Position numbers and translations under genes: made by a program. The notes below the pieces were generated by a model. It was not told the origin of the DNA, ran no database searches, and worked only from the letters and a program-made list of their open reading frames with translations. Below are positions 30,292 through 51,150 of a stretch of DNA of 64,000 nt, in pieces. Every line of letters begins with the position of its first letter. Positions within the stretch are counted from its first letter, which is position 1. Source of the DNA: a virus; the IMG/VR virus record IMGVR_UViG_3300021420_000018, positions 1 to 64,000 of that record. One strand, given 5' to 3'.

Positions 30292-31676
30292 GCGTCTTCA
30301 GAAACTTTGCTCACGGCCAAAACGCAAGCGCAGTGGGGATGCTGCGGCGGCTTGGTTGCTCCGGAGAAGAACTTACTGCCGATCTCTACTTCCTGATCCT
30401 GATTCATAAGGCATTCCGGGCAAGGGTCGAGATTGGACGTGAGCCACTTCACTTTCTCTACGACGCCGGACTTTTCCCAGGTTGAGAAGTTGCTGGCCGA
30501 TTGCGCCATCGCGATCTCGCTGCGCGCAATCATCTTGGCGCGCCCCAAACTGAAAATGCCTTCGCCTTCGGTTTCCTCGGCAAGTGCCTCGCGTATGTCA
30601 TTGACGACTTCCGATATCGGAGTTTCTTTCGTGAACGAGTCGGCGACGATCTGGCGGATCTTGTCCCGGGTAGTTTGCGAGATGGCCCAACGCGCATTCG
30701 GATTTTCGACCAGGTTGCCTTCGTTGTCGAACTTCTTGCCGATCATTTCCGCGGCTCGATGGGTCGCATACTCTTGCGCGCTGCGATTGGCCGAAGCGAT
30801 CAGTTTGGAGTTCGAGACATCGATCTGCAACAGGCCGTGGCCGGCGCCGGAGAGTGCTGCCGATTCCAAGGACGAGCGCACTTGCGACGGCAGCGCCAGC
30901 CATTGAGCTTCTAAGACGGTGATGAGCCGATCCGTGAATGCTTGGGCATCGTCCGCATCTGCCTTGGCTAATAGCTTCGCAAACTTCTTGGAACTGTTCG
31001 GGCCGGCGACGCCATTGGCCTGCGCGAATGCAGAACTCTCGGCCTCTTTGTCGGACTTGCCATCTTTCTTCGCACGCTCGTACGCGCTGTTCCAGACGGC
31101 CACCCATTGCTTGCGCTTGGATTGCCGGACATAGTCCGGCGCATCGCTCGCCGATGAATACGGCTTCTGCAAAAACGTTTCGCGATAGCCCTTTTCCAGG
31201 TCCGTAAAAGTTTTCTCCCTGCTTCGAAACTGCAAATCACGCAGCGTGATGGTCTGGCCTTTCAGAGGATTCTCGCCCTGGGCGTGTTTCTGCGCCATTC
31301 CTTTTTTGAAATAGCCGATCGTCAGGTGCGGCTGAAAAGTGGGATGAGGGTCGGTGTGCGGAAGTGCGGCCAGGGCGTCGTGCAGCTTAACTAGCTTTTC
31401 GCTCTCCAGCAAAAATACCAGCGGCTCGCCTTCATCGTTCTCGGGGAAAGCGTGAAGATCTCCGAACGTTACATCGACTGTGCCCGTGCCTTTGGTGATG
31501 GCGCTCACCTGGTCGGGAGTGACTTCAGGATGGAAACCCCATCGCACCGTTACGTGCGGAGTCAGTTCACGGCCCTTCGGCGCGAGCTCGCTTTCCTCGA
31601 TGCCCTTTTGCAAATCGAGCACGCGTTGCGCATCAACCGGAGACAAGGTGAACTGAACTGCGCCGTATTTAGCCAT
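30288..31676 (-). CDS. MuF-like head morphogenesis protein fused to 2H phosphoesterase (Acb1/LigT-like) and ChaB-like domains
   Basis: PHVTV and PHLTI (two HxT motifs); WVAVWNSAYE...SAFAQAN; RAKMIARSE; CPEC; PPQHPHCAC. Confidence 0.85.
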   Translation of the reverse strand: MAKYGAVQFTLSPVDAQRVLDLQKGIEESELAPKGRELTPHVTVRWGFHPEVTPDQVSAITKGTGTVDVTFGDLHAFPENDEGEPLVFLLESEKLVKLHDALAALPHTDPHPTFQPHLTIGYFKKGMAQKHAQGENPLKGQTITLRDLQFRSREKTFTDLEKGYRETFLQKPYSSASDAPDYVRQSKRKQWVAVWNSAYERAKKDGKSDKEAESSAFAQANGVAGPNSSKKFAKLLAKADADDAQAFTDRLITVLEAQWLALPSQVRSSLESAALSGAGHGLLQIDVSNSKLIASANRSAQEYATHRAAEMIGKKFDNEGNLVENPNARWAISQTTRDKIRQIVADSFTKETPISEVVNDIREALAEETEGEGIFSLGRAKMIARSEIAMAQSASNFSTWEKSGVVEKVKWLTSNLDPCPECLMNQDQEVEIGSKFFSGATKPPQHPHCACVLAVSKVSEDA

Positions 31677-34600
31677 TACGACAGATTCTGTTCCTCGAGA
31701 CTCTTGTGACCGAACAGCAGCGTCGCCTTCCAGCCGCTCGGCGCGTTTTCGTCGGGGTTCAGCACGAGCATGCCGCCCTCGTCAAGGTCGAGCACGCCAT
31801 CATCGCCATCGAACATTTCCATCGACAGCTCTCGCAGACATGAGCCCGAGAATACCGTGAGAGTCGGCCCGCCGCTCGCCAGCCCTTCTGATTTGATGTC
31901 GGTCATAAAAGCAGTCAGGCGGGCAATGAATACATTCCTCGACTCGCCGCCTTCCGGAGCTTCGTCTGGATTCTTCATCAGCCGCTTTACTTTTTCTTTG
32001 TTCGGAGCCTTCTTCTTGCCGGCGAGCACGCCCAGGTTCCAGGTCTTGGCGCGATCATCTTCGACAACCCGCGGATGGTAGATCGATCCGCTGGATACGA
32101 TGTCGGCCGTCTCTTTGGTGCGCTTGAGCGTGGCGCAATAAATCTTCCGGAGAGGAACTTCGCTCAAGTATTGCTGGGCCGTGATCAGCTTCACGCGGCC
32201 GTCATCGGAAAGCGGGAAGTCAAGCCAGCCGTCTGAGCGATGCACCGGATCGAGAGCGGTGCGGCCGTGGCGCATCAAGAAAAGCGACTTGTACGTGTAA
32301 TCAACCGCAGCTTCGGCTTTCTGCAGCGGGGCCAGGCCTTCGCGGAAAGCTTTCTCCAGCGTTTGGTCCTCGAGCCTCACACTCTTCTCGGAACGTGCCA
32401 GACGCGCACGTATCGACTCCGCCTTGCGCAGCTTGAAGAAGCGGTTGGTTTCCTCGCGCGCCATGGTCAGTTGCTTGGTGAAAATGCTTCCAAGCACATG
32501 CTCGATCTGATGAATCCCCTGCTGGCTTTCAGGCGTGAGCATGGATGGATCGATACGGGATCCATGGCGCTTGGCAATCTGATCGTCGGCGATAACTTCG
32601 TGGATGGTCTTCACCAACTCTTCGTGACTGGTCTTCTGCCCATCGAGCGATTCTTTGCCGTTGTCGACGCCAACGTTTCGGCCAGTCGAGCGGCCTCCGC
32701 CGGCTTCCTGCGCCACAGGCGTTCCCGATCTTCCCGCATTGTGGTCGCCGTCATTGCCGTTATTCATGGGCCCGCCAGCTCCAGGAGCATCGGGATTCGG
32801 CGTAACTGGATGCGGCTTGGGTCTGCCGGAATCGTCAATCTGCACGCCAGCCTGAACAGAGGGAATGCCAATCGGCATGAATCCCGTTCCGGTAACGATG
32901 CCCAGGCGATCCGCTTCCGGTTCCGGCCGCAGCTCTTCGCCGACGCGCTTGCGCGCTTCGTTCGGCGTCATCACACCGCTCTTGACGTACATCGTGATAG
33001 CCGCGGCGTTCTTGAGTGGATCCGGCTCCGCGTAAGGATTCATCGCGATTTCGTACTCGATGAATCCCATCTTTTTCTGGATGATGTAGTCGATGACGCC
33101 TTTGAGCCAGGTCACCCAGGGCAGCGTGCCTTCAATCGTCGACGCATCGCCGGCAGCCCTGCCTTCGGTGCGGATCATGCGGATCAAACGCTGTGGACTT
33201 GTGCCGTACGCAAAACAAATCTGGCGGATATGCTTCTCGTCGTACACGCCGGCAAGCAACGGTTCCTTCGAGAAAATAATCTGATCTTCCTTGCCAGGCT
33301 CGTTGAATCCTTGCACCAGACGCCACTGATTGCGCGCCGCCAGGTTGCCGGCGAGCTGCGAGTTCATCCAGTCCATGGCTTCGGTGATGCGCTCAGGAGA
33401 AGTGCCGCGAGGAACGACTTGCACGACGCCCGGGATCGATCCTTCCTCGTAATAAGCGCGCACGAACTTCAGTCTGGAAATGCCGACCATGATTTCTTCG
33501 GCGACTTGTTCGGTCGGGGAATTTCCTGCAAAACATGCCTTGCCGTTGCGGCGAACATAGACAACGCTGTTCGGTACAGTTAGACAGTAAACTTTTCCGG
33601 AGTATGGCTGCCGACGAGTTTCGAATTTCTTGGTATAGCTACCTCTTTTATGAACGGCAACCACATAGTGCGCACGTGAGTTAATAGCCAGAATTGTGCG
33701 ACGCATTCCATTTCTGCCAATGATAGTGCGGTCGCGAAGAATTATCTTGCGAATGGTGGCGTACACTCCCATCTTCTGCGCTAATTCCTGTAATTGATCA
33801 GCAAGACGCTTACTGGAAGTGAAGGCTCTTGATCTGCTGGCATCTCCATCGCCTAACCAGAAATGATGCCAAAAAATCTGCAACTGGCGCGATGTCGCAT
33901 TCATGATTTCTTGTGGAATGTATTTGTCGCCAGCATGGCCAAGGGGCCGCAGGTGGCGCGCCAGAAACTTGGATCCGATGATAAATGCATCGTTACTATA
34001 GAGAACAGGACCGTTGTTTATCTTGTGCAGCAAGGCGCGCATTTCAGAGATTCGCTTGTTGTTTTTAGATTGTGCGATGTAGACGTAATTGCCTTCACAA
34101 CTTCCTTCGGCAAGATAGAGGCCAATCAACGCACAATAATCATCGCCGCTCATCTCCAACACACGGCCATCGTGGATATGTCGCTGCCGATTTCGGACGA
34201 CCGCTTGATGGGCAGTCGCCAAGGCAACGCCGGCGACTGCGCCGATCTGCGAATAAGACAATCCTTGCGATCGTAGTTCGCGACAGCGAGCGTCGAGTTG
34301 AAGTCGGGAGACATGCCGATCTTCCGCAATGGCAGGGAAGCGCTTCGAATTAACTTCTACGCCATGCCATATAGACGTTACTGGAATCCCAGTTGCAGAA
34401 GTACAGTGTTTCTCTAATTCGGCTGCAGATACTAAGACATCGCCAGAACGGTGTTTGTTACCACCGAGACTAAAAGGCAACTTATCAATGACCATCCTGT
34501 GCTGTGGTGTTACTTCGAGATCCAAAGAACGAGAGGAGAATCTAATTAAATCTCCGACATAGTCATAGCAATGCTTGGCCGTAGCGAGCTGCCACTCGAA

Positions 34601-35446
34601 AGCTTTCGTCTTAAGATTACGCGTAGCTATTCGTTCTGTCTTGATATCGACATCCTGGAACAACTTCCATCCGGATTCAGTCAAGACTTCCGTCCCGTCG
34701 CGATAACACTGCCCATACAATTGGGAAGCCAGTGTGTTACGGGGAGCGATATTCCTGGGTTTGTAAACCAATTGGTCTGTTGTGAGGTTCACAAGGGGTA
34801 TCCCCCACCAGTTTTGCGCATAGGCGGGATTCGGCGGTACCGGCGTCAGTCCGTTCTCGTCGATGTAACGCACGATCATCTCGCCGCGCAGCACCACCAT
34901 TTCGGCAAGTTCGTTACGGAAGTTTTTCCTGAGCAGGATCGACGAAGCATCGATGACCAGCAGATCATCGAGCAACGGACGCAGCCAGTCCTGCCAGTTG
35001 TGCTCGCGGTCGGGATACTCGAAAAACCGATTGAGCAGGAGAAGTGTTGCATCGCCTTTAGAGCGAATGGCCACATCGCTGCGCGTTTCGCCTGGCTTGG
35101 CGCGCATCTGAATTTCCCAGGGCACGCGGCTTATGGTGTCTTTGACGTTCTCGATGCAGACCGCTGCGAGTGGATATTTGGCGAGAGCCTTTAAATCGGC
35201 TGCACTATACTCAGCATCCTGCCGCGGCGTCCACCACAAGTTCTGGCCGGCCCAGTATTGGTAGGCGCGTGGTTCGGTGCCTGGAGGCCCGAGAGGCTTA
35301 ATGGGTTGAAGCGGTGAATACCAGGAATCCTGCTCGATGCCGCGAATCTGATCAGGTGGCCGCTGGTAAAGCGACTGGCCGTATCGCTGAATGGCACCGA
35401 CCATTTGGCCGATCGGCCGGATAACCAGATCGCCGCGCTTTGCCAT
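31676..35446 (-). CDS. Portal protein with intein and C-terminal histidine-phosphatase-like domain
   Basis: LLDDLLVID; YG|SP; ICFAYGTSP; GVMTPNEAR; C-terminal RHG...GWLDFPLSDDG...PEGGES. Confidence 0.88.
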   Translation of the reverse strand: MAKRGDLVIRPIGQMVGAIQRYGQSLYQRPPDQIRGIEQDSWYSPLQPIKPLGPPGTEPRAYQYWAGQNLWWTPRQDAEYSAADLKALAKYPLAAVCIENVKDTISRVPWEIQMRAKPGETRSDVAIRSKGDATLLLLNRFFEYPDREHNWQDWLRPLLDDLLVIDASSILLRKNFRNELAEMVVLRGEMIVRYIDENGLTPVPPNPAYAQNWWGIPLVNLTTDQLVYKPRNIAPRNTLASQLYGQCYRDGTEVLTESGWKLFQDVDIKTERIATRNLKTKAFEWQLATAKHCYDYVGDLIRFSSRSLDLEVTPQHRMVIDKLPFSLGGNKHRSGDVLVSAAELEKHCTSATGIPVTSIWHGVEVNSKRFPAIAEDRHVSRLQLDARCRELRSQGLSYSQIGAVAGVALATAHQAVVRNRQRHIHDGRVLEMSGDDYCALIGLYLAEGSCEGNYVYIAQSKNNKRISEMRALLHKINNGPVLYSNDAFIIGSKFLARHLRPLGHAGDKYIPQEIMNATSRQLQIFWHHFWLGDGDASRSRAFTSSKRLADQLQELAQKMGVYATIRKIILRDRTIIGRNGMRRTILAINSRAHYVVAVHKRGSYTKKFETRRQPYSGKVYCLTVPNSVVYVRRNGKACFAGNSPTEQVAEEIMVGISRLKFVRAYYEEGSIPGVVQVVPRGTSPERITEAMDWMNSQLAGNLAARNQWRLVQGFNEPGKEDQIIFSKEPLLAGVYDEKHIRQICFAYGTSPQRLIRMIRTEGRAAGDASTIEGTLPWVTWLKGVIDYIIQKKMGFIEYEIAMNPYAEPDPLKNAAAITMYVKSGVMTPNEARKRVGEELRPEPEADRLGIVTGTGFMPIGIPSVQAGVQIDDSGRPKPHPVTPNPDAPGAGGPMNNGNDGDHNAGRSGTPVAQEAGGGRSTGRNVGVDNGKESLDGQKTSHEELVKTIHEVIADDQIAKRHGSRIDPSMLTPESQQGIHQIEHVLGSIFTKQLTMAREETNRFFKLRKAESIRARLARSEKSVRLEDQTLEKAFREGLAPLQKAEAAVDYTYKSLFLMRHGRTALDPVHRSDGWLDFPLSDDGRVKLITAQQYLSEVPLRKIYCATLKRTKETADIVSSGSIYHPRVVEDDRAKTWNLGVLAGKKKAPNKEKVKRLMKNPDEAPEGGESRNVFIARLTAFMTDIKSEGLASGGPTLTVFSGSCLRELSMEMFDGDDGVLDLDEGGMLVLNPDENAPSGWKATLLFGHKSLEEQNLS
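33521..34708 (-). mobile_element. Intein (396 aa) with LAGLIDADG endonuclease in portal
   Basis: Q|CYRDGTEVLTESGW; VTPQH; GLYLAEG; FWLGDG; VYCLTVPN...VRRNGK..FAGN|S. Confidence 0.92.
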
Positions 35447-45775: not shown

Positions 45776-46186
45776 CTATTCGGAGGTGGGTGTTGCCGCG
45801 ACATCCAATGTTTTTGCTGCTCTCGCTGCAATCTCCGGAGGCAACGGCTCTTTGACCAAAACGATTTCGATCCTGCGATCCGCCGGCCCGATCTCAACAC
45901 GCTGCGCTGCTTTGCCATCCGTCGCTTCGCGCATCTCGCGCGCTGGACCAGGATGACCTTTCGTTACTGCTTCACGAATCAGACCAAGCGCAACTGCGTC
46001 GGCCATCAAAGAGTTTTCATTCAGCGGATGAAAAAATGCGCTCGCCTTTTTCAAAACGCGCAACAGTTGTGGGGGGATGGTCTCGTTTAGCTGCCGAACA
46101 TAAGCCTGGCGCAGCGCAGCAGCCGACTGGAGACCGGAGGGTCTTGAGTTGTTTGTATTTGCGACTCCGTTGGTTCTATTGGCCAC
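45776..46186 (-). CDS. Possible terminase small subunit-like protein
   Basis: RPSG; A..G...AREMREATDGKAAQRVE pattern recalls TerS-like proteins; divergent from TerL; start uncertain. Confidence 0.45.
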   Translation of the reverse strand: MANRTNGVANTNNSRPSGLQSAAALRQAYVRQLNETIPPQLLRVLKKASAFFHPLNENSLMADAVALGLIREAVTKGHPGPAREMREATDGKAAQRVEIGPADRRIEIVLVKEPLPPEIAARAAKTLDVAATPTSE

Positions 46187-46292
46187 GTTTAGTTTCGCCG
46201 TCTCGTATAAGTGTAGTAATACCAGAGTCTTGGGTTTTCGCGCAAGTGGGGGATTCGCCAGTGTTCCGGGTTTGTGGTGTAATGATCGCGGA

Positions 46293-49052
46293 ATGAGTGA
46301 AGGGCAAGAACCGACCAAGCCGTTTGTGGTAGCAGCTCCGAAAGTAAAAGGGGGAGCGCCGCGAATATACTACCAGTGCACCAAGCATGTTTCTCATGCG
46401 TGGTCGTCGGACGACATGGAGACCGCGTATTGCTATCGGTGCAAGAAGACCCGGATGGAGTTATTGATTCCGGCGCCCACGATTGAAGAGGCCAGTAACG
46501 TAATCGATGATCTGGTAAAGGAAGCGCAGGGCGATCCGTGTCCGATCCATGTAAGGAATGTAGATGGATTTCCAGAACAGAAAGAGTTGGTGGAATCCGC
46601 GAGAAAACGAAAGATGGTGCGAGCGGGAAGACGTGGAGGGAAGACCACGAGTGCGGCGACTTTGACCGTGAATCACTTTGCCAAAGGGGGAAGGGTTTTG
46701 TATGCGGTGCCGGTGGTTGACCAACTGGAGAAGTGGTGGAAAGAAGTTTTATGGAGTCTGCGGGAACTGATCAATGCCGGGAGGGTATACAAGAACGAGA
46801 CCGAGCACGTGATTGAGTTCCGGGGGACCGACAACCGGATCAAGGGGAAGACGGCGTGGAATGCCGATACGCTCAGAGGTGACTGGTGCACGCTACTGGT
46901 TTTGGACGAATACCAGCTGATGGATGAGACGGCGTGGACCGAAGTGGGTCAGCCGATGATGATTGACAAAGACGGAGATGCGGTCTTGATTTACACGCCG
47001 CCGAGTTTAAGTTCGCGGTCGATCAGCAAAGCCGTGGACAAGCAGCATGCGTCCAAGATGTTCAAGCGGTGCTCGGCCGATCCGGAATGGCTGTGTTTGC
47101 ATTTTTCATCGAGGGCCAATCCGTTTCTGTCCAAAGAGGGAATCGATCGGGCCGAACGCAATATGAGCAAGCTCGCGTTCATCCAGGAGATTGAAGCCGT
47201 GGATACCGACGAAGTGCCGAATGCGTTGTGGACCAGAAAAGTGTTGGACGATTCCCGGGTGCTCGCGCCAACGGAATGGGACCGCAAAGAACGGAAGTTT
47301 GTGATACCGCCAGCGCTGAGGGCGAAATATCCGGAGGCGCCGGATGCGCCGGTATTTCCTGGCGGTTATCGCAGGATCGTGGTGGCCATTGACCCTTCGG
47401 GATCGACAACCACGGAAGTGGGGATTGTGGCGGCAGGAGAAGCGTTTGACGGTGAGTATTACATCCTGTTTGACGAATCGATGTTTGCGTCACGGCCAAA
47501 AGCGTGGGCGGGCCAATCGATCAGGCTTTATGAAAAATGCGGCGCTGACCGGATCGTGGCCGAACGGAACTTTGGCGGCGACATGGTGGAAGAGACCTTG
47601 AAGACCGTGGATGAGAATATTCCGTATAAAGACATTGTCTCGAGCCGCGGTAAGCTCGTTAGGGCCGAACCGGTGAGCTCGCTGTTTGAGCATAACCGCG
47701 CGCACATGGTTGGCGAGTTTCCGGAACTTGAAGATGAACTCGTGAGCTACACGGGAATGCCAGGTGAGCGCAGTCCTAATCGCCTGGACGCTTGCTTTGT
47801 AAAAGGCACGAAGGTGTTGACCAGGCGCGGGAACATCCCCATCGAAGCCGTTCGAGTTGGTGACTTTGCTTGGACGCGCCAAGGCTGGAAGCGAATCCTC
47901 AAAGCTGGAATCACATCAGCGCGAGCGCCGGTGACAACGCTCCAGTTAAGTGATCGTTCGATTACCGGAACAAGCTCTCACCCTATTTGGGCTATAGGCA
48001 AGGGATTCACAGCTATGGACGCATTGGTTTGTGGTGATACAATGCTGACGTGCCAAAGCGACAGCCGCAGCAAACTAAAGAGCGGCCCGAAACCATCTAT
48101 TTTCAAGGCATTCCGTACCACAGATATCCGGACAGCAAGCGCCGCAATCAACGCGTTTATTATACAGGCAGTAAGAATGGCCGAACTGTTATGTTGCACC
48201 AAGCCATCTGGGAATATCATCGTGGGCCGATTCCGAAAGGCTATCACGTACATCACGTCGACGATGACCCACTCCACAATGAGATTTCAAATTATGAATG
48301 CTTATCCCCGGCCGCGCACAACTCAAAGCTTCGGGGCAAATCCAGCGATCGGAGGCGACGCCATTTGGCAGACGTTCGACCGCTTGCATCGGAATGGCAC
48401 TCCAGTCCGGAAGGAATCGCTTGGCACCGCAACCACGGTAAACGCACTTGGCGTGGCCGCAAGCCGCAGCCAAAAGGGAAATGTTTGTCGTGCAATGAGC
48501 CCATCAAAGGATTCAAAGATAAACGCTTCTGCAGCCGAGCCTGCATGCAGACAGCCTATAGAAAAAACCACACATATCAGTGTTTGGTCTTGTGCCCCAT
48601 TTGCGGCAATCCGTTCTGGCAAAGCAAATATCGGCCACGACCGAAGTTTTGCTCCCGTCTATGTGCTTGGGAAGCACGACGCAGGGAGCGCACCGGTTTA
48701 CAATTTGGAAGTTGAGGACGCACACGAATATTTCGCCAACGGGATCCTTGTTCACAACTGCGTGTTCGCGATCATGGAGCTGTTAGGGCCCGGTGCGCTC
48801 AGCCTGGTCGAACTGTACAAGCAGGGTGGAATGGAGAAATACATGCTGCCCAAAACAACTGCCGCGACGTCCTTGGCCAGTGTGGCCACAAACAGCAAAA
48901 CTCCAAAATGTCCGCAGTGCCATCAGATTACGCTGCAAAATAACGTGGCCGGCCAAATCCGCTGCGGACATTGCGGATTCCAGCGGCCGATACCAGGGCA
49001 GCCCAACGTGCAGCCGATTGGCGGCCGGCGCGCGATCGATCTCCGCAAGTAA
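46293..49052 (+). CDS. terL: Terminase large subunit with intein
   Basis: RAGRRGGKT Walker A; LRG; LVLDE Walker B; VAIDP; AERNFGG; GKLVRAEP; SPNRLDA. Confidence 0.93.
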   Translation: MSEGQEPTKPFVVAAPKVKGGAPRIYYQCTKHVSHAWSSDDMETAYCYRCKKTRMELLIPAPTIEEASNVIDDLVKEAQGDPCPIHVRNVDGFPEQKELVESARKRKMVRAGRRGGKTTSAATLTVNHFAKGGRVLYAVPVVDQLEKWWKEVLWSLRELINAGRVYKNETEHVIEFRGTDNRIKGKTAWNADTLRGDWCTLLVLDEYQLMDETAWTEVGQPMMIDKDGDAVLIYTPPSLSSRSISKAVDKQHASKMFKRCSADPEWLCLHFSSRANPFLSKEGIDRAERNMSKLAFIQEIEAVDTDEVPNALWTRKVLDDSRVLAPTEWDRKERKFVIPPALRAKYPEAPDAPVFPGGYRRIVVAIDPSGSTTTEVGIVAAGEAFDGEYYILFDESMFASRPKAWAGQSIRLYEKCGADRIVAERNFGGDMVEETLKTVDENIPYKDIVSSRGKLVRAEPVSSLFEHNRAHMVGEFPELEDELVSYTGMPGERSPNRLDACFVKGTKVLTRRGNIPIEAVRVGDFAWTRQGWKRILKAGITSARAPVTTLQLSDRSITGTSSHPIWAIGKGFTAMDALVCGDTMLTCQSDSRSKLKSGPKPSIFKAFRTTDIRTASAAINAFIIQAVRMAELLCCTKPSGNIIVGRFRKAITYITSTMTHSTMRFQIMNAYPRPRTTQSFGANPAIGGDAIWQTFDRLHRNGTPVRKESLGTATTVNALGVAASRSQKGNVCRAMSPSKDSKINASAAEPACRQPIEKTTHISVWSCAPFAAIRSGKANIGHDRSFAPVYVLGKHDAGSAPVYNLEVEDAHEYFANGILVHNCVFAIMELLGPGALSLVELYKQGGMEKYMLPKTTAATSLASVATNSKTPKCPQCHQITLQNNVAGQIRCGHCGFQRPIPGQPNVQPIGGRRAIDLRK
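48035..48043 (+). promoter_or_regulatory. Extended -10 promoter inside the intein
   Basis: TG-a-TACAAT, 7 nt before GTG 48050. Confidence 0.55.
48050..48715 (+). CDS. HNH endonuclease nested out of frame in the TerL intein
   Basis: LHQAIWEYHRGPIPKGYHVHHVDDDPLHNEISNYECL; two CxxC...FCSRxC Zn fingers. Confidence 0.88.
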   Translation: MPKRQPQQTKERPETIYFQGIPYHRYPDSKRRNQRVYYTGSKNGRTVMLHQAIWEYHRGPIPKGYHVHHVDDDPLHNEISNYECLSPAAHNSKLRGKSSDRRRRHLADVRPLASEWHSSPEGIAWHRNHGKRTWRGRKPQPKGKCLSCNEPIKGFKDKRFCSRACMQTAYRKNHTYQCLVLCPICGNPFWQSKYRPRPKFCSRLCAWEARRRERTGLQFGS

Positions 49053-49084
49053 GCGTTTACCCACACTTCAGTTTGTGCTATGGT
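49050..49084 (+). promoter_or_regulatory. Operator plus promoter after terL
   Basis: TAAGCGTTTA 49050-49059; TGcTATGGT extended -10. Confidence 0.55.
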
Positions 49085-49092
49085 CTGCGGCC

Positions 49093-51150
49093 ATGAGGAA
49101 AGCATTGCCTGGCAAAACCAGGAAAGAGGCCAAGCGTAACACTTATGCGCTAGTAGATGATCCCGACGCGCTATATTTTTCGTTGTGCGTTACAGAAGGC
49201 ATGGAGACGCGAATCATCATCACCAGACCGGCGAAAGCAAAGCAGTTCGGCGGGGTCAACATGACCATCTCGGAGTTCTGGCGCATGCTGGAAAAGCATT
49301 TACAGAACCAAAGGAGAAAACATGAAAGAAAAGTCCTCCAGTGAAAAAGTGCGCCAGGACGTGTGCGAACAGAGCGGCCATAGCCTCACGTCGTTCGAGG
49401 GCAAAATCGTTTGCGAGATCCGCGGCGACGGCATCAAGCTCAGCCAAGTCGCATGAACTGGTTTCACCGGCACGGGCCTTGGGAAGTGGTCGGCGCGTCG
49501 TGCGACGAGATGACGCACTACATCTGCGGCGAACACTACAAGGTTTTCGCCGTCGCCGTTGACTTCGCACTGATCTGGGGCTTTGTACGGGCCTATATGT
49601 TTCTGAGGAGCCTGTGAGATGTGTCTCGATGAAGTGTTCAGCAGTAGGCCAAAGGCTGCGGGATATGGTTGGAAGGTATACGAATTATCGGGCCGAGCAC
49701 TCACGGGCATTTACATGGAGTATTCGGCAGCCGAAGGGGAGTGGCTAAAAGCCCCTGATACAAACGATCCAGACGTTGGGTTTCACATATACAAATCCAA
49801 ACGGTGTGCTGAAAAGTTCTTGAAGTATTCGCGCATACATGCTCGCGGTGATCGCTTCGCCATAGTTCGTGTGCGGTACAGAAAAGCTCACGCTCACGGC
49901 AGGGGTGACGGAGGATTCAGTAATGCCGTCGTTGTGGTAGCGAAAGAAATGTTCATCTACCCACGGAAGAAGGCTGGTCAATGACCCTCTGTGTCCCATG
50001 CCTGGAACGCGCCAACCGCGAGCGGGAGGCTTATCGCATCGTGGACGGCACTCCCATGTGCCGGCCGTGCTTCACGGGCAGCGGAGAATTCGACAAAGAG
50101 GCTAACTCGGAGTCACGGCGCATGGGCTGGTCGCACAGAGACTATACCCACAGGTCGGCGAGGGAACTCAAGTGACCGACTGGTTCTGCTTGGATTGCCG
50201 CTTCCCGACGCAGCTAAACAAGCACGGCTATTGCGCCCGCTGCGGCAGTGACGGAGTAGCTCCGCCAACCGTGCGTACCAAGACCGAGGCAGAGTACGAA
50301 GTGGAGTTGCTGGAGCGGCTGTATGAGAGGAGCGAGGGATGAGTTTCGATTCTTTGCTTTTACACCACCAAGTTCCAGGGGCGCGAGGCTTTCACGGATG
50401 GCCACATTATCTGCGTAGGGATGGCTCCGAAGGACACTTACGGCGAGAAGAAGGTAACCCAAGCCATCCTAGACTTAATCCCAAAGAAGCTGCACCCAGC
50501 ACTTCGCGGCAAGCGGGGTAGGTCAAGTTCAGGACTCGACTGCATTGACTTTGAACCTAGCTGCCGAGTCCAAAAGTGGTACGTCGAGTTCATCGAGACG
50601 AAATATACAAAGCCGCGATTCTTTGTCGGCAACCCCCTTGGGAAGGACTGGAAAGAGCGCGTCTTAATTGCCAAAGAGGGGCGCCATATTGTGGCACTCG
50701 TAGCGCCGGTTCATATGTGGGGAGAGCTTACATAGATGGGTCGCGTCTGTTCGCGTGCGGGGTGTGGAACCATATTACTAACGCCTAACGGCTCGACGGA
50801 CTGGAAGAAGCGCTTCTGCTCGAAGGAATGCAAAACTTTGGATCTGCGCGAGAAGATGCGGGATAAGAGACGGCTGGCCAAGGATGCTTTGCAGGATGCA
50901 CTTGTTTCGCGTAACAAAGCACGCGCAGCCACGGACGAGACAGAGGTAGGGGAGATGGCCAAGGGTGACTAGGTCCGATGAAGCGTCTACCAACGTATGT
51001 GTGGGTCTGTGAAGGCTGCGGAATGTGGCGGGATTGGGGAAGCGATACCGTATTCAATACGCAAGAACCCTATCTGGTGTGCCCAGAGTGCAAAAAGGTT
51101 ACTAAGCACTCTCAGTTCGATGGCGATGGCAATAAAAGCCGAGATCAAGG
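49093..51150 (+). other. Run of small hypothetical CDS (e.g. 49093-49344, 49619-49984, 49981-50175, 50421-50735, 50736-50972)
   Basis: Packed plus-strand ORFs with ATGA/GTGA overlaps, several Cys-rich. Confidence 0.55.

Follow-up and report, generated by a model that had tools for sequence, protein, structure and literature searches.

A terminase large subunit gene (terL) carrying an intein, and an HNH endonuclease gene that lies in a second reading frame of the same intein DNA, were analyzed in a 64,000-nucleotide (nt) stretch of viral DNA (positions 1 to 64,000 of IMG/VR record IMGVR_UViG_3300021420_000018), from now on referred to as the window. Reading the open reading frames (ORFs) of the window showed that the terL frame on the plus strand is free of stop codons from 46149 to 49052. 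Within it, a class-1-type intein (47793..48758, plus strand) occupies 322 codons from Cys1 (CFVKG...) to the terminal His-Asn (...ILVHN), sits directly behind the Asp-Ala belonging to the last nuclease motif of terL and is followed by the residues CVF. In the frame two bases on from the intein, that is, the -1 (+2) frame, an ORF on the same strand with a GTG start and a TGA stop (48050-48715) encodes the 221-residue HNH endonuclease. All 666 nt of this ORF are stop-free in both frames, and the third frame contains nine stops there. An original prediction, based on the letters of the window, had claimed a 322-codon open terL intein, a +2-frame HNH gene at 48050-48715 and 666 nt open in two frames, and both the coordinates and the double opening hold on direct frame reading. 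When the HNH gene was shuffled synonymously, the intein frame stayed open in 6.9% of the shuffles, so the two open frames of the window alone are only mildly unlikely. The case for dual coding rests on comparative data.

The intein and the endonuclease encoded within it

The intein carries the marks of class 1, namely C1, the TSSHP stretch (H63), the HN at residues 321-322 and a +1 Cys, and C1, the block B H63 and N322 are invariant across 54 aligned inteins. An AlphaFold model of the intein-frame product, computed together with 53 relatives, reached pLDDT scores (predicted local distance difference test) of 87-98 for residues 1-88 and 95-98 for residues 290-322. Residues 1-88 constitute the N-terminal splicing lobe (47793..48056), which contains blocks A and B with TSSHP and aligns with 59 related sequences. 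The C-terminal splicing lobe (48654..48758) contains blocks F and G, VYNLEVEDAHEYFANGILVHN, and the 3' end of the HNH gene extends into its first codons. A Foldseek search with the intein model returned 17 PDB matches at E <= 0.001, all of which are inteins or Hint domains, including the gp41-1 intein (6qaz, E 6e-5). According to the model, the intein ends adopt the Hint splicing fold, and the terL precursor would be spliced via these two Hint lobes. The stretch between the lobes (48057..48653, residues 89-287) is read through in terL translation. In the model, residues 94-280 have a pLDDT mostly below 50 and no secondary structure, and a Pfam search with the in-frame middle gave no family match; these approximately 200 codons are predicted to encode a disordered linker. 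Two further claims of the original prediction, intact splicing blocks and an in-frame middle free of nuclease motifs, agree with these results.

The +2-frame product matches Pfam HNH_3 (E 1.1e-12, 47.9 bits against a cut-off of 24.8) and the HNH endonuclease family PHROG 15471 (E 7.6e-21). Its catalytic core, which corresponds to the HNH_3 match (48191..48319, residues 48-90), contains H68, H69, N77, N81 and H90, while two CxxC...CxxxC zinc-binding modules (48482..48664) are formed by C145/148/161/165 and C182/185/201/205. All 16 family members aligned share the five core residues and the eight zinc-binding Cys. AlphaFold predicted the HNH protein with a mean pLDDT of 90.5. The best solved relative, both by profile and by fold, is I-HmuI of Bacillus phage SPO1 (PDB ID: 1u3e), with a profile E value of 7.4e-4 and a fold Z of 7.8 (root-mean-square deviation 7.8 Å over 109 residues; next Z 5.0). 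I-HmuI differs, however, in being intron-encoded, and the identity over the aligned residues is 11%. I-HmuI is not known to have the two C-terminal zinc modules seen in the window HNH; the second of these modules resembles the YacG zinc ribbon (Z 4.6). A Foldseek search of the whole HNH model against the PDB gave zero matches at E <= 0.001, and no Pfam match to Endonuclease_7 was found in the HNH product at E <= 0.1. Judged by these matches, the product is an I-HmuI-like HNH_3 endonuclease with two zinc-binding modules, in agreement with the originally predicted 221-residue HNH protein with two zinc fingers in the +2 frame.

The endonuclease also has numerous relatives of its own size. Fifteen database proteins of 158-225 amino acids align with the window HNH end to end, and in an exhaustive profile search, which returned 1,304 clusters at E <= 1e-30, 144 of the 150 top matches have a length of 198-307 amino acids. 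By sequence comparison, the window HNH is a full-length member of a stand-alone protein family of approximately 200-300 amino acids whose N- and C-terminal ends are alike. Two very long proteins, P0151 (1,662 amino acids) and P0174 (1,134 amino acids), match the zinc-module part alone, with 16-17 tandem repeats, and look like arrays of the CxxC...CxxxC module.

The intein is flanked by two terL exteins. The N-extein (46416..47792, plus strand) comprises the ATPase domain together with the greater part of the RNaseH-like nuclease domain, ends in ...SPNRLDA, matches Pfam Terminase_6C (E 7.5e-9) and is assigned to terminase large subunit by PHROG. The mechanically called terL ORF begins at a TTG located 89 codons 5' of the Met used by the closest homologue, P0018 (559 amino acids); the true start is probably the ATG at 46416, the Met at which P0018 begins. 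The C-extein (48759..49052, plus strand) begins with the +1 Cys (CVFAIMELL...) and runs to the stop codon. Its coding part (48759-49049) ends in a zinc-ribbon-like CxxC...CxxC tail (KCPQC...CGHCG) that is kept in P0018; this tail is the probable reason why some sources name terL homologues after RPC12/RpoP or L37AE. One C-x2-C pair is found at the terL N-terminus (46416-46480) too.

Nested, split and free-standing relatives

A profile built from eight HNH proteins led to 87 loci, 80 of them viral (the best 80 of 210 confirmed) and seven from genomes. With a single HNH protein as query, no close relatives were found in the viral and genome contigs searched, and a blastn search of the intein DNA against phage records gave nothing. 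In 61 of the 87 loci, the HNH open frame is located wholly within a longer ORF of 297-1,266 codons on the same strand, and in 59 of these 61 nested loci the frame offset is that of the window. The remaining two (L062, 2506-3336, and L088, 2060-2923) have the intein two bases ahead of the HNH frame and not one, which suggests an independent nesting event or an indel shift. Almost all nested loci (58/61) can be aligned to the window terL, mostly just over the intein, with exteins that are often too diverged. A complete intein of 270-363 residues, from C1 to a terminal Asn (mostly HN), was identified in 57 nested loci. Typically, the HNH frame opens 82 codons past C1 and the intein ends about 19 codons past the HNH stop. 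The insertion site is the same in all of them, across diverse terL genes, with the Asp-His or Asp-Ala of the last nuclease motif preceding it and a [C/S]-D-A-L-R-Y-like stretch following it. An HNH in frame with the intein was found in 0 of the 87 loci, where the longest HNH open span is 268 codons, and the originally predicted placement of the endonuclease outside the intein frame is thereby upheld. A search for longer, fused HNH proteins found none, which is weak evidence by itself.

Two cultured phages show the nested layout in an annotated terL, Tetrasphaera phage TJE1 (L089, 1098-3284) and Clostridium phage phiCDHM19 (L091, 443-2842). Both contain a full-length +2-frame HNH gene that was left unannotated. 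As phiCDHM19 is A+T-rich, an alternate frame that is open over more than 200 codons is especially improbable by chance in this genome.

The 26 non-nested loci include 17 with a split intein, in which the N-lobe ends the upstream ORF and the ORF of the C-lobe begins within or just after the HNH gene. Of the others, L037 shows the C-lobe alone because its contig starts inside the HNH gene, L055 shows the N-lobe alone, and neither lobe is present in seven. A cultured example of the split layout is Lactobacillus phage CL2 (L092, NC_028835.1, 506-2771). Its annotated 482-residue terL ends in an intein N-lobe and is followed by an annotated HNH gene, after which an unannotated ORF at about 2487-2771, in yet another frame, encodes the C-lobe and the terL tail. 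By its sequence, the CL2 terL appears to be a naturally occurring split-intein gene. In at least four loci (L007, L014, L060 and L087), the HNH gene is located between terL and an SPP1-type portal gene. In L014 and L087 the Pfam match to the terL nuclease domain extends as far as the model's end, meaning that terL is intact and the HNH gene truly free-standing in these two. In Acinetobacter phage BP10 the HNH gene lies just upstream of the terminase small subunit gene (terS), and the tblastn matches in mycobacteriophages are free-standing HNH genes, none of them in terL. Split and free forms occur predominantly in A+T-rich contigs (for example the split loci L053, L056, L058, L066 and L069; G+C 0.23-0.40), and nested forms span a G+C content of 0.30-0.65; a stop-free second frame is hardest to keep in A+T-rich DNA.

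A quick unrooted tree was calculated for 81 HNH proteins, without L010, L017, L033, L037 and L050, for which no start codon was assigned, and without L062, L088, L089, L091 and L092. The three layouts cluster on this tree, with 8 changes between them as compared with a shuffled mean of 22.8, and all 18 split forms fall into one group (Shimodaira-Hasegawa-like approximate likelihood ratio test support 88). Because the support is weak and a root is absent, the order in which nested, split and free forms arose is not drawn from the tree.

The relatives allow the constraints on each of the two frames to be compared. In all 60 nested sequences of the same offset (59 loci and the window), the intein frame has 0 stops over the HNH gene, whereas the mean of synonymous shuffles is 2.6 stops and the median chance of zero is 0.02. 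In the 26 non-nested relatives the same frame contains 3-16 stops, with a mean of 9.5, which means that the frame is not open by nature and is kept open where terL reads through it. Over 1,540 pairs of nested copies, the HNH frame shows 37.6% amino acid identity and the intein frame 20.1%, and nucleotide differences at HNH codon positions 1, 2 and 3 amount to 0.49, 0.46 and 0.66. Very similar values were obtained for 25 non-nested copies, with 42.2% identity in the HNH frame, 21.8% in the untranslated +1 frame, and differences of 0.45, 0.40 and 0.63 at the three positions. As the identity in the intein frame (20.1%) is no higher than that in a frame that is not translated (21.8%), the linker evolves as if the HNH gene alone were coding. 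Selection acts on the HNH protein and, within the intein-frame linker, appears to act on freedom from stops alone. With regard to the comparison of both frames across homologues that the original prediction had suggested, substitutions follow the HNH frame, judged by identity and codon position.

Expression signals, mobility and alternative explanations

The HNH start is preceded by a predicted sigma-70-like promoter located in intein codons (48016..48043, plus strand), which consists of TGGACG as the -35 element, a 16-nt spacer and the extended -10 element TG-a-TACAAT (48035-48043). Six nt separate this motif from the GTG. It is the sole sigma-70-like site on either strand of the region 46000-49500. 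Among the relatives, a TAnnnT hexamer that ends exactly 6 nt before the assigned start was found in 21 of the 60 nested copies, in 5 of the 19 split ones and in 1 of the 7 free ones, the background for such a hexamer at any of four spacings being 5.4% (1,711 of 31,510 start-like codons). Twenty-three nested copies have the hexamer 5-8 nt upstream of the start; in these, TG precedes it in 14 of 23 and a -35 element matching at least four of six positions at a distance of 16-18 nt is present in 15 of 23, as compared with a background of 0.7% for hexamer and -35 together. Some copies show the perfect consensus, for example TTGACA and TATAAT in L026. A strict Shine-Dalgarno sequence 5-13 nt upstream of the start was found in 16 of the 60 nested copies (background 4.4%), and both signals occur together in none.

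The promoter-like element overlies the intein motif LDxLxxGD-I-I/M. Within it, Gly is encoded by GGT in 14 of 19 cases (19% overall in these ORFs) and Ile by ATA in 15 of 18 (29% overall), figures that are hand counts and include the near-duplicates L012 and L013; synonymous choice assembles T-GAT-ATA-AT. A promoter-like motif before the GTG had been part of the original prediction, and its recurrence in relatives together with the codon bias lends support to it. With 6 nt between the -10 element and the start codon, the transcript is predicted to begin at the start codon itself, which suggests that the HNH mRNA is leaderless. Transcription from the promoter-like element followed by leaderless translation would be the corresponding route of expression.

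The distribution of the intein among terL genes is relevant to its mobility. P0018 is 82% identical to the window terL over the N-extein and 59% over the C-extein. It has an empty site, RLDA-MVFA, with no insert and hence no site for a nested HNH gene. Hint, intein or LAGLIDADG domains are found in 42 of 119 other listed terL relatives (hand count) and in none of the ten closest. Mobility of the intein and HNH gene is supported, at the level of sequence comparison, by this empty site and by the patchy presence of inteins among terL relatives, while homing and the cleavage specificity of the enzyme are put forward below as parts of a model.

We consider it likely that the locus represents a composite mobile element made up of a through-translated intein and an overprinted, separately expressed HNH gene. 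In this model, terL would be translated straight through the 322-residue intein, which would be excised by its two Hint lobes, restoring the nuclease motif RLDA-CVF. The approximately 200 residues between the lobes would serve as a disordered spacer with the sole requirement of being stop-free. Read one base back, the same DNA would constitute a separate gene, that of the I-HmuI-like HNH endonuclease and its two zinc modules. Roughly the final twelve codons of the N-lobe would double as a sigma-70 promoter (-35, TG, -10) ending 6 nt before the GTG. The HNH mRNA would begin with the start codon and its translation would be leaderless; in other family members a Shine-Dalgarno sequence is present instead. 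The enzyme would most likely cut intein-less terL at or near the RLDA/MVF site, and repair from an intein-carrying copy would then spread intein and nuclease gene jointly (homing). The arrangement may have originated when a free-standing HNH gene invaded a mini-intein. A more far-reaching proposal, to which we would give slightly less than an even chance, is that intein and nuclease gene have co-evolved as one mobile unit, with a host-type promoter in the N-lobe codons firing a leaderless mRNA, the enzyme being made early or from a prophage and independently of late terL expression and splicing, and the family keeping every stage of a single pathway, namely a free nuclease gene just past terL, a split intein around the gene and a continuous dual-coded intein. 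Introns and free-standing endonucleases are known to engage in 'collaborative homing', of which a co-evolved intein unit would be the intein counterpart.

A number of observations weigh against the composite element as described. Among the sequencing runs listed as holding this stretch, there is no RNA run. The intein ends do match Pfam Hint_2 and Intein_splicing, but below the curated cut-offs. The loci are related to one another, and the counts given above are not counts of independent events. Because the promoter-like element overlaps the conserved LDxLxxGD motif, part of its conservation is at the protein level. Shuffled sequences contain a mean of 2.0 such sites per 3.5 kb, more than the one observed, so the site in the window alone proves nothing, and its -35 element, TGGACG, is weak. 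By strict rules, neither the hexamer nor a Shine-Dalgarno sequence is found in 23 of the 60 nested copies, and the hexamer at the 6-nt spacing is confined to the 21 mentioned above. GTG is also a poor leaderless initiator in some bacteria. Several of these points would also fit the HNH protein being made by internal initiation on the long late terL mRNA with no promoter of its own, the A/T-rich TATAAT-like element being an unstructured landing site for ribosomes or a by-product of the intein motif; a promoter is evidently not universal, since a Shine-Dalgarno sequence takes the place of the hexamer in some copies and neither signal is present in others. Internal initiation would, however, leave unexplained why TG precedes the hexamer in 14 of 23 cases and a -35 element accompanies it in 15 of 23, against the 0.7% background for hexamer and -35 together, why its distance to the start is a constant 6 nt and why the choice of the rare ATA for Ile, together with GGT and GAT, yields the exact extended -10 consensus. 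We regard it as an unlikely explanation, albeit the most serious of those considered here. A role in packaging was also considered, in which the HNH protein would be a terminase-associated nuclease of the HK97 gp74 type, kept by or in terL through working with terminase. Nucleases of this type are proteins of about 100-130 amino acids with the Pfam domain HNH (PF01844), are encoded beside terS and terL and are needed for cos cleavage. Every family member examined does adjoin terminase genes, including the copy upstream of terS in BP10 and the four between terL and portal, an arrangement that would fit a role in packaging, and a packaging-type phage HNH, that of GVE2 (5h0o), is among the fold matches. 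Yet its Z of 3.8 compares with 7.8 for the homing endonuclease I-HmuI, which is the best match by both sequence and fold; the window HNH has no match to PF01844 at E <= 0.1, is twice the size of packaging HNH proteins and has two zinc modules for reading DNA. It is also carried along with an intein found in some close terL relatives and missing from others, and the closest terL, that of P0018, has neither intein nor nested HNH site. A packaging nuclease is thus quite improbable.

It is very improbable that the HNH frame is a decaying relic, neither expressed nor selected and open by chance or through the selection of terL against stops. A single sequence would be compatible with such a relic, given the proportion of synonymous shuffles that leave both frames open. 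Selection on terL, however, guards the other frame and not that of the HNH gene, which stays open throughout in each of the 87 loci, retains invariant catalytic and zinc-binding residues, yields a confident model and has substitutions that track its own codon positions. An artefact can be practically dismissed, be it two compensating indels from assembly or sequencing that displaced a normal in-frame endonuclease, or, as a related idea, an intein-HNH fusion produced via programmed frameshifting. A 9,309-nt contig from sequencing run X1, possibly the source sample, matches positions 47500-49100 with zero differences. In run X2, which belongs to a different study, three short contigs are identical to the window over 47569-47784, 47960-48152 and 48694-48860, the second of which spans the promoter and the HNH start and the third the HNH stop and the intein end; these low-depth contigs cover half of the bins, and the middle of the HNH gene is confirmed by X1 alone. 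No indels relative to the window were seen in the contigs of either run, and compensating frameshift errors, which had been raised along with the original prediction, are accordingly absent from the independent contigs. The same frame offset recurs in 59 loci and in cultured phage genomes, and an in-frame form was found nowhere. As regards frameshifting, a TGA in the HNH frame (48035..48037), formed by the Gly-Asp codons of the intein, is located 12 nt before the GTG and leaves no room for producing the HNH protein by a frameshift from the terL frame; within those 12 nt, reading revealed no slippery site of the X XXY YYZ type. Programmed frameshifting was rejected on account of this stop.

Outside the terL locus, the window is phage-like and contains portal, MuF, DnaB, DnaC-like, replication-initiator and ParB-like genes. 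The portal ORF (31676-35443, minus strand) is 1,255 codons long, with extra N-terminal matches that include a weak thymidylate-synthase PHROG and a C-terminus that matches a PHROG of unknown function.

Relation to known systems

Out-of-frame nucleases have been described in other inteins and in one gene without an intein, in publications of which parts were available to us and to those parts the following comparisons refer. Gosselin, Arsenault and Gogarten (bioRxiv 10.1101/2025.01.02.630785) described actinophage inteins, some of them located in terL, whose nuclease is endonuclease VII-like and encoded 'in reading frame 3', and proposed invasion by free-standing endonuclease genes as their origin. 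The window shares with them a same-strand, second-frame nuclease in the endonuclease region of the intein, terL as one of the hosts, and an in-frame stretch with no recognisable fold where the alternate frame folds as a nuclease. The nucleases themselves differ, being endonuclease VII-like (IPR004211) in their case and HNH_3/I-HmuI-like with two zinc modules in the window, a distinction drawn from the text of their preprint. As compared with the actinophages covered in the accessible part of that preprint, the window-type element is also found in phages of Clostridium, Acinetobacter and Lactobacillus as well as in soil and other metagenomes. The family additionally has a conserved, start-abutting promoter-like element and split-intein and free-standing sister forms, which go beyond what that part of the preprint describes. 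The window therefore has the architecture of Gosselin et al., yet judging by sequence it is no member of their described endonuclease VII-like group.

A similar principle is found in the ShiLan domain (Arsenault et al., Genes 2025, PMC11855218), an HNH that starts with GTG and is concealed out of frame within the DNA methylase gene of a mycobacteriophage. Leaderless translation was speculated on by its authors, who, in the part of the article available, report finding no promoter or ribosome-binding site. Likenesses to the window are a zinc-finger HNH in the third frame, its initiation at GTG, and a host frame that lacks stops and encodes a disordered loop. There is, however, no intein in ShiLan and the insert remains in the host protein, whereas in the window the intein would remove the insert and a conserved -35/TG/-10 element is present. 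A cyanobacterial dnaX intein with an out-of-frame LAGLIDADG homing endonuclease, for which secondary invasion of a mini-intein was proposed (Phillips et al., bioRxiv 10.64898/2026.09.14.751524), is alike in having a +2 overlapping nuclease ORF, purifying selection on the nuclease frame and a relaxed intein frame, as far as the available text describes it. It differs in that a LAGLIDADG enzyme is encoded in a cellular gene, as opposed to an HNH enzyme in a phage terL. The split relatives resemble the fractured genes of Dassa et al. 2009 (PMC2677866), in which the two halves of a split intein flank a GIY-YIG or Vsr-like gene. Their layout is matched by 17 relatives and CL2, in the order terL-N with the N-terminal intein half (IntN), HNH, and the C-terminal intein half (IntC) with terL-C, the 3' end of the HNH gene overlapping the IntC ORF. 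In contrast, the window intein is continuous and dual-coded and not split, and the endonucleases in the accessible part of that study are not HNH enzymes.

The original prediction had suggested an unprecedented design. This part of it does not stand, as out-of-frame intein endonucleases of other families have been in print since 2025. A literature search that had most subscription journals outside its reach found no paper on terL inteins with a nested gene of this HNH_3 family, or on the promoter of such a gene.

These systems have several practical and conceptual consequences. Standard gene callers report terL alone and miss the nuclease gene, as in TJE1 and phiCDHM19, and in CL2 the N-terminal fragment of a split terL was labelled as the whole gene. 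In phages of many phyla, terminase genes carry a large, widespread HNH family of out-of-frame intein endonucleases, a kind called rare in 2025-26. Protein engineers may take an interest in split terL inteins and in mini-inteins able to accommodate a spacer of 200 residues. One nuclease family occurs nested, with a split intein or free-standing at a single terL site, a series that offers a frame for how inteins gain endonucleases and how split inteins arise, and a start-abutting promoter in intein codons would be a testable answer to how hidden endonucleases come to be translated. Compared with the papers cited here, four features appear, on sequence grounds, to be particular to the window and its relatives, namely the family of the nuclease, its broad range of hosts, a conserved promoter-like element next to the start codon, and the occurrence of nested, split and free forms at a single terL site.

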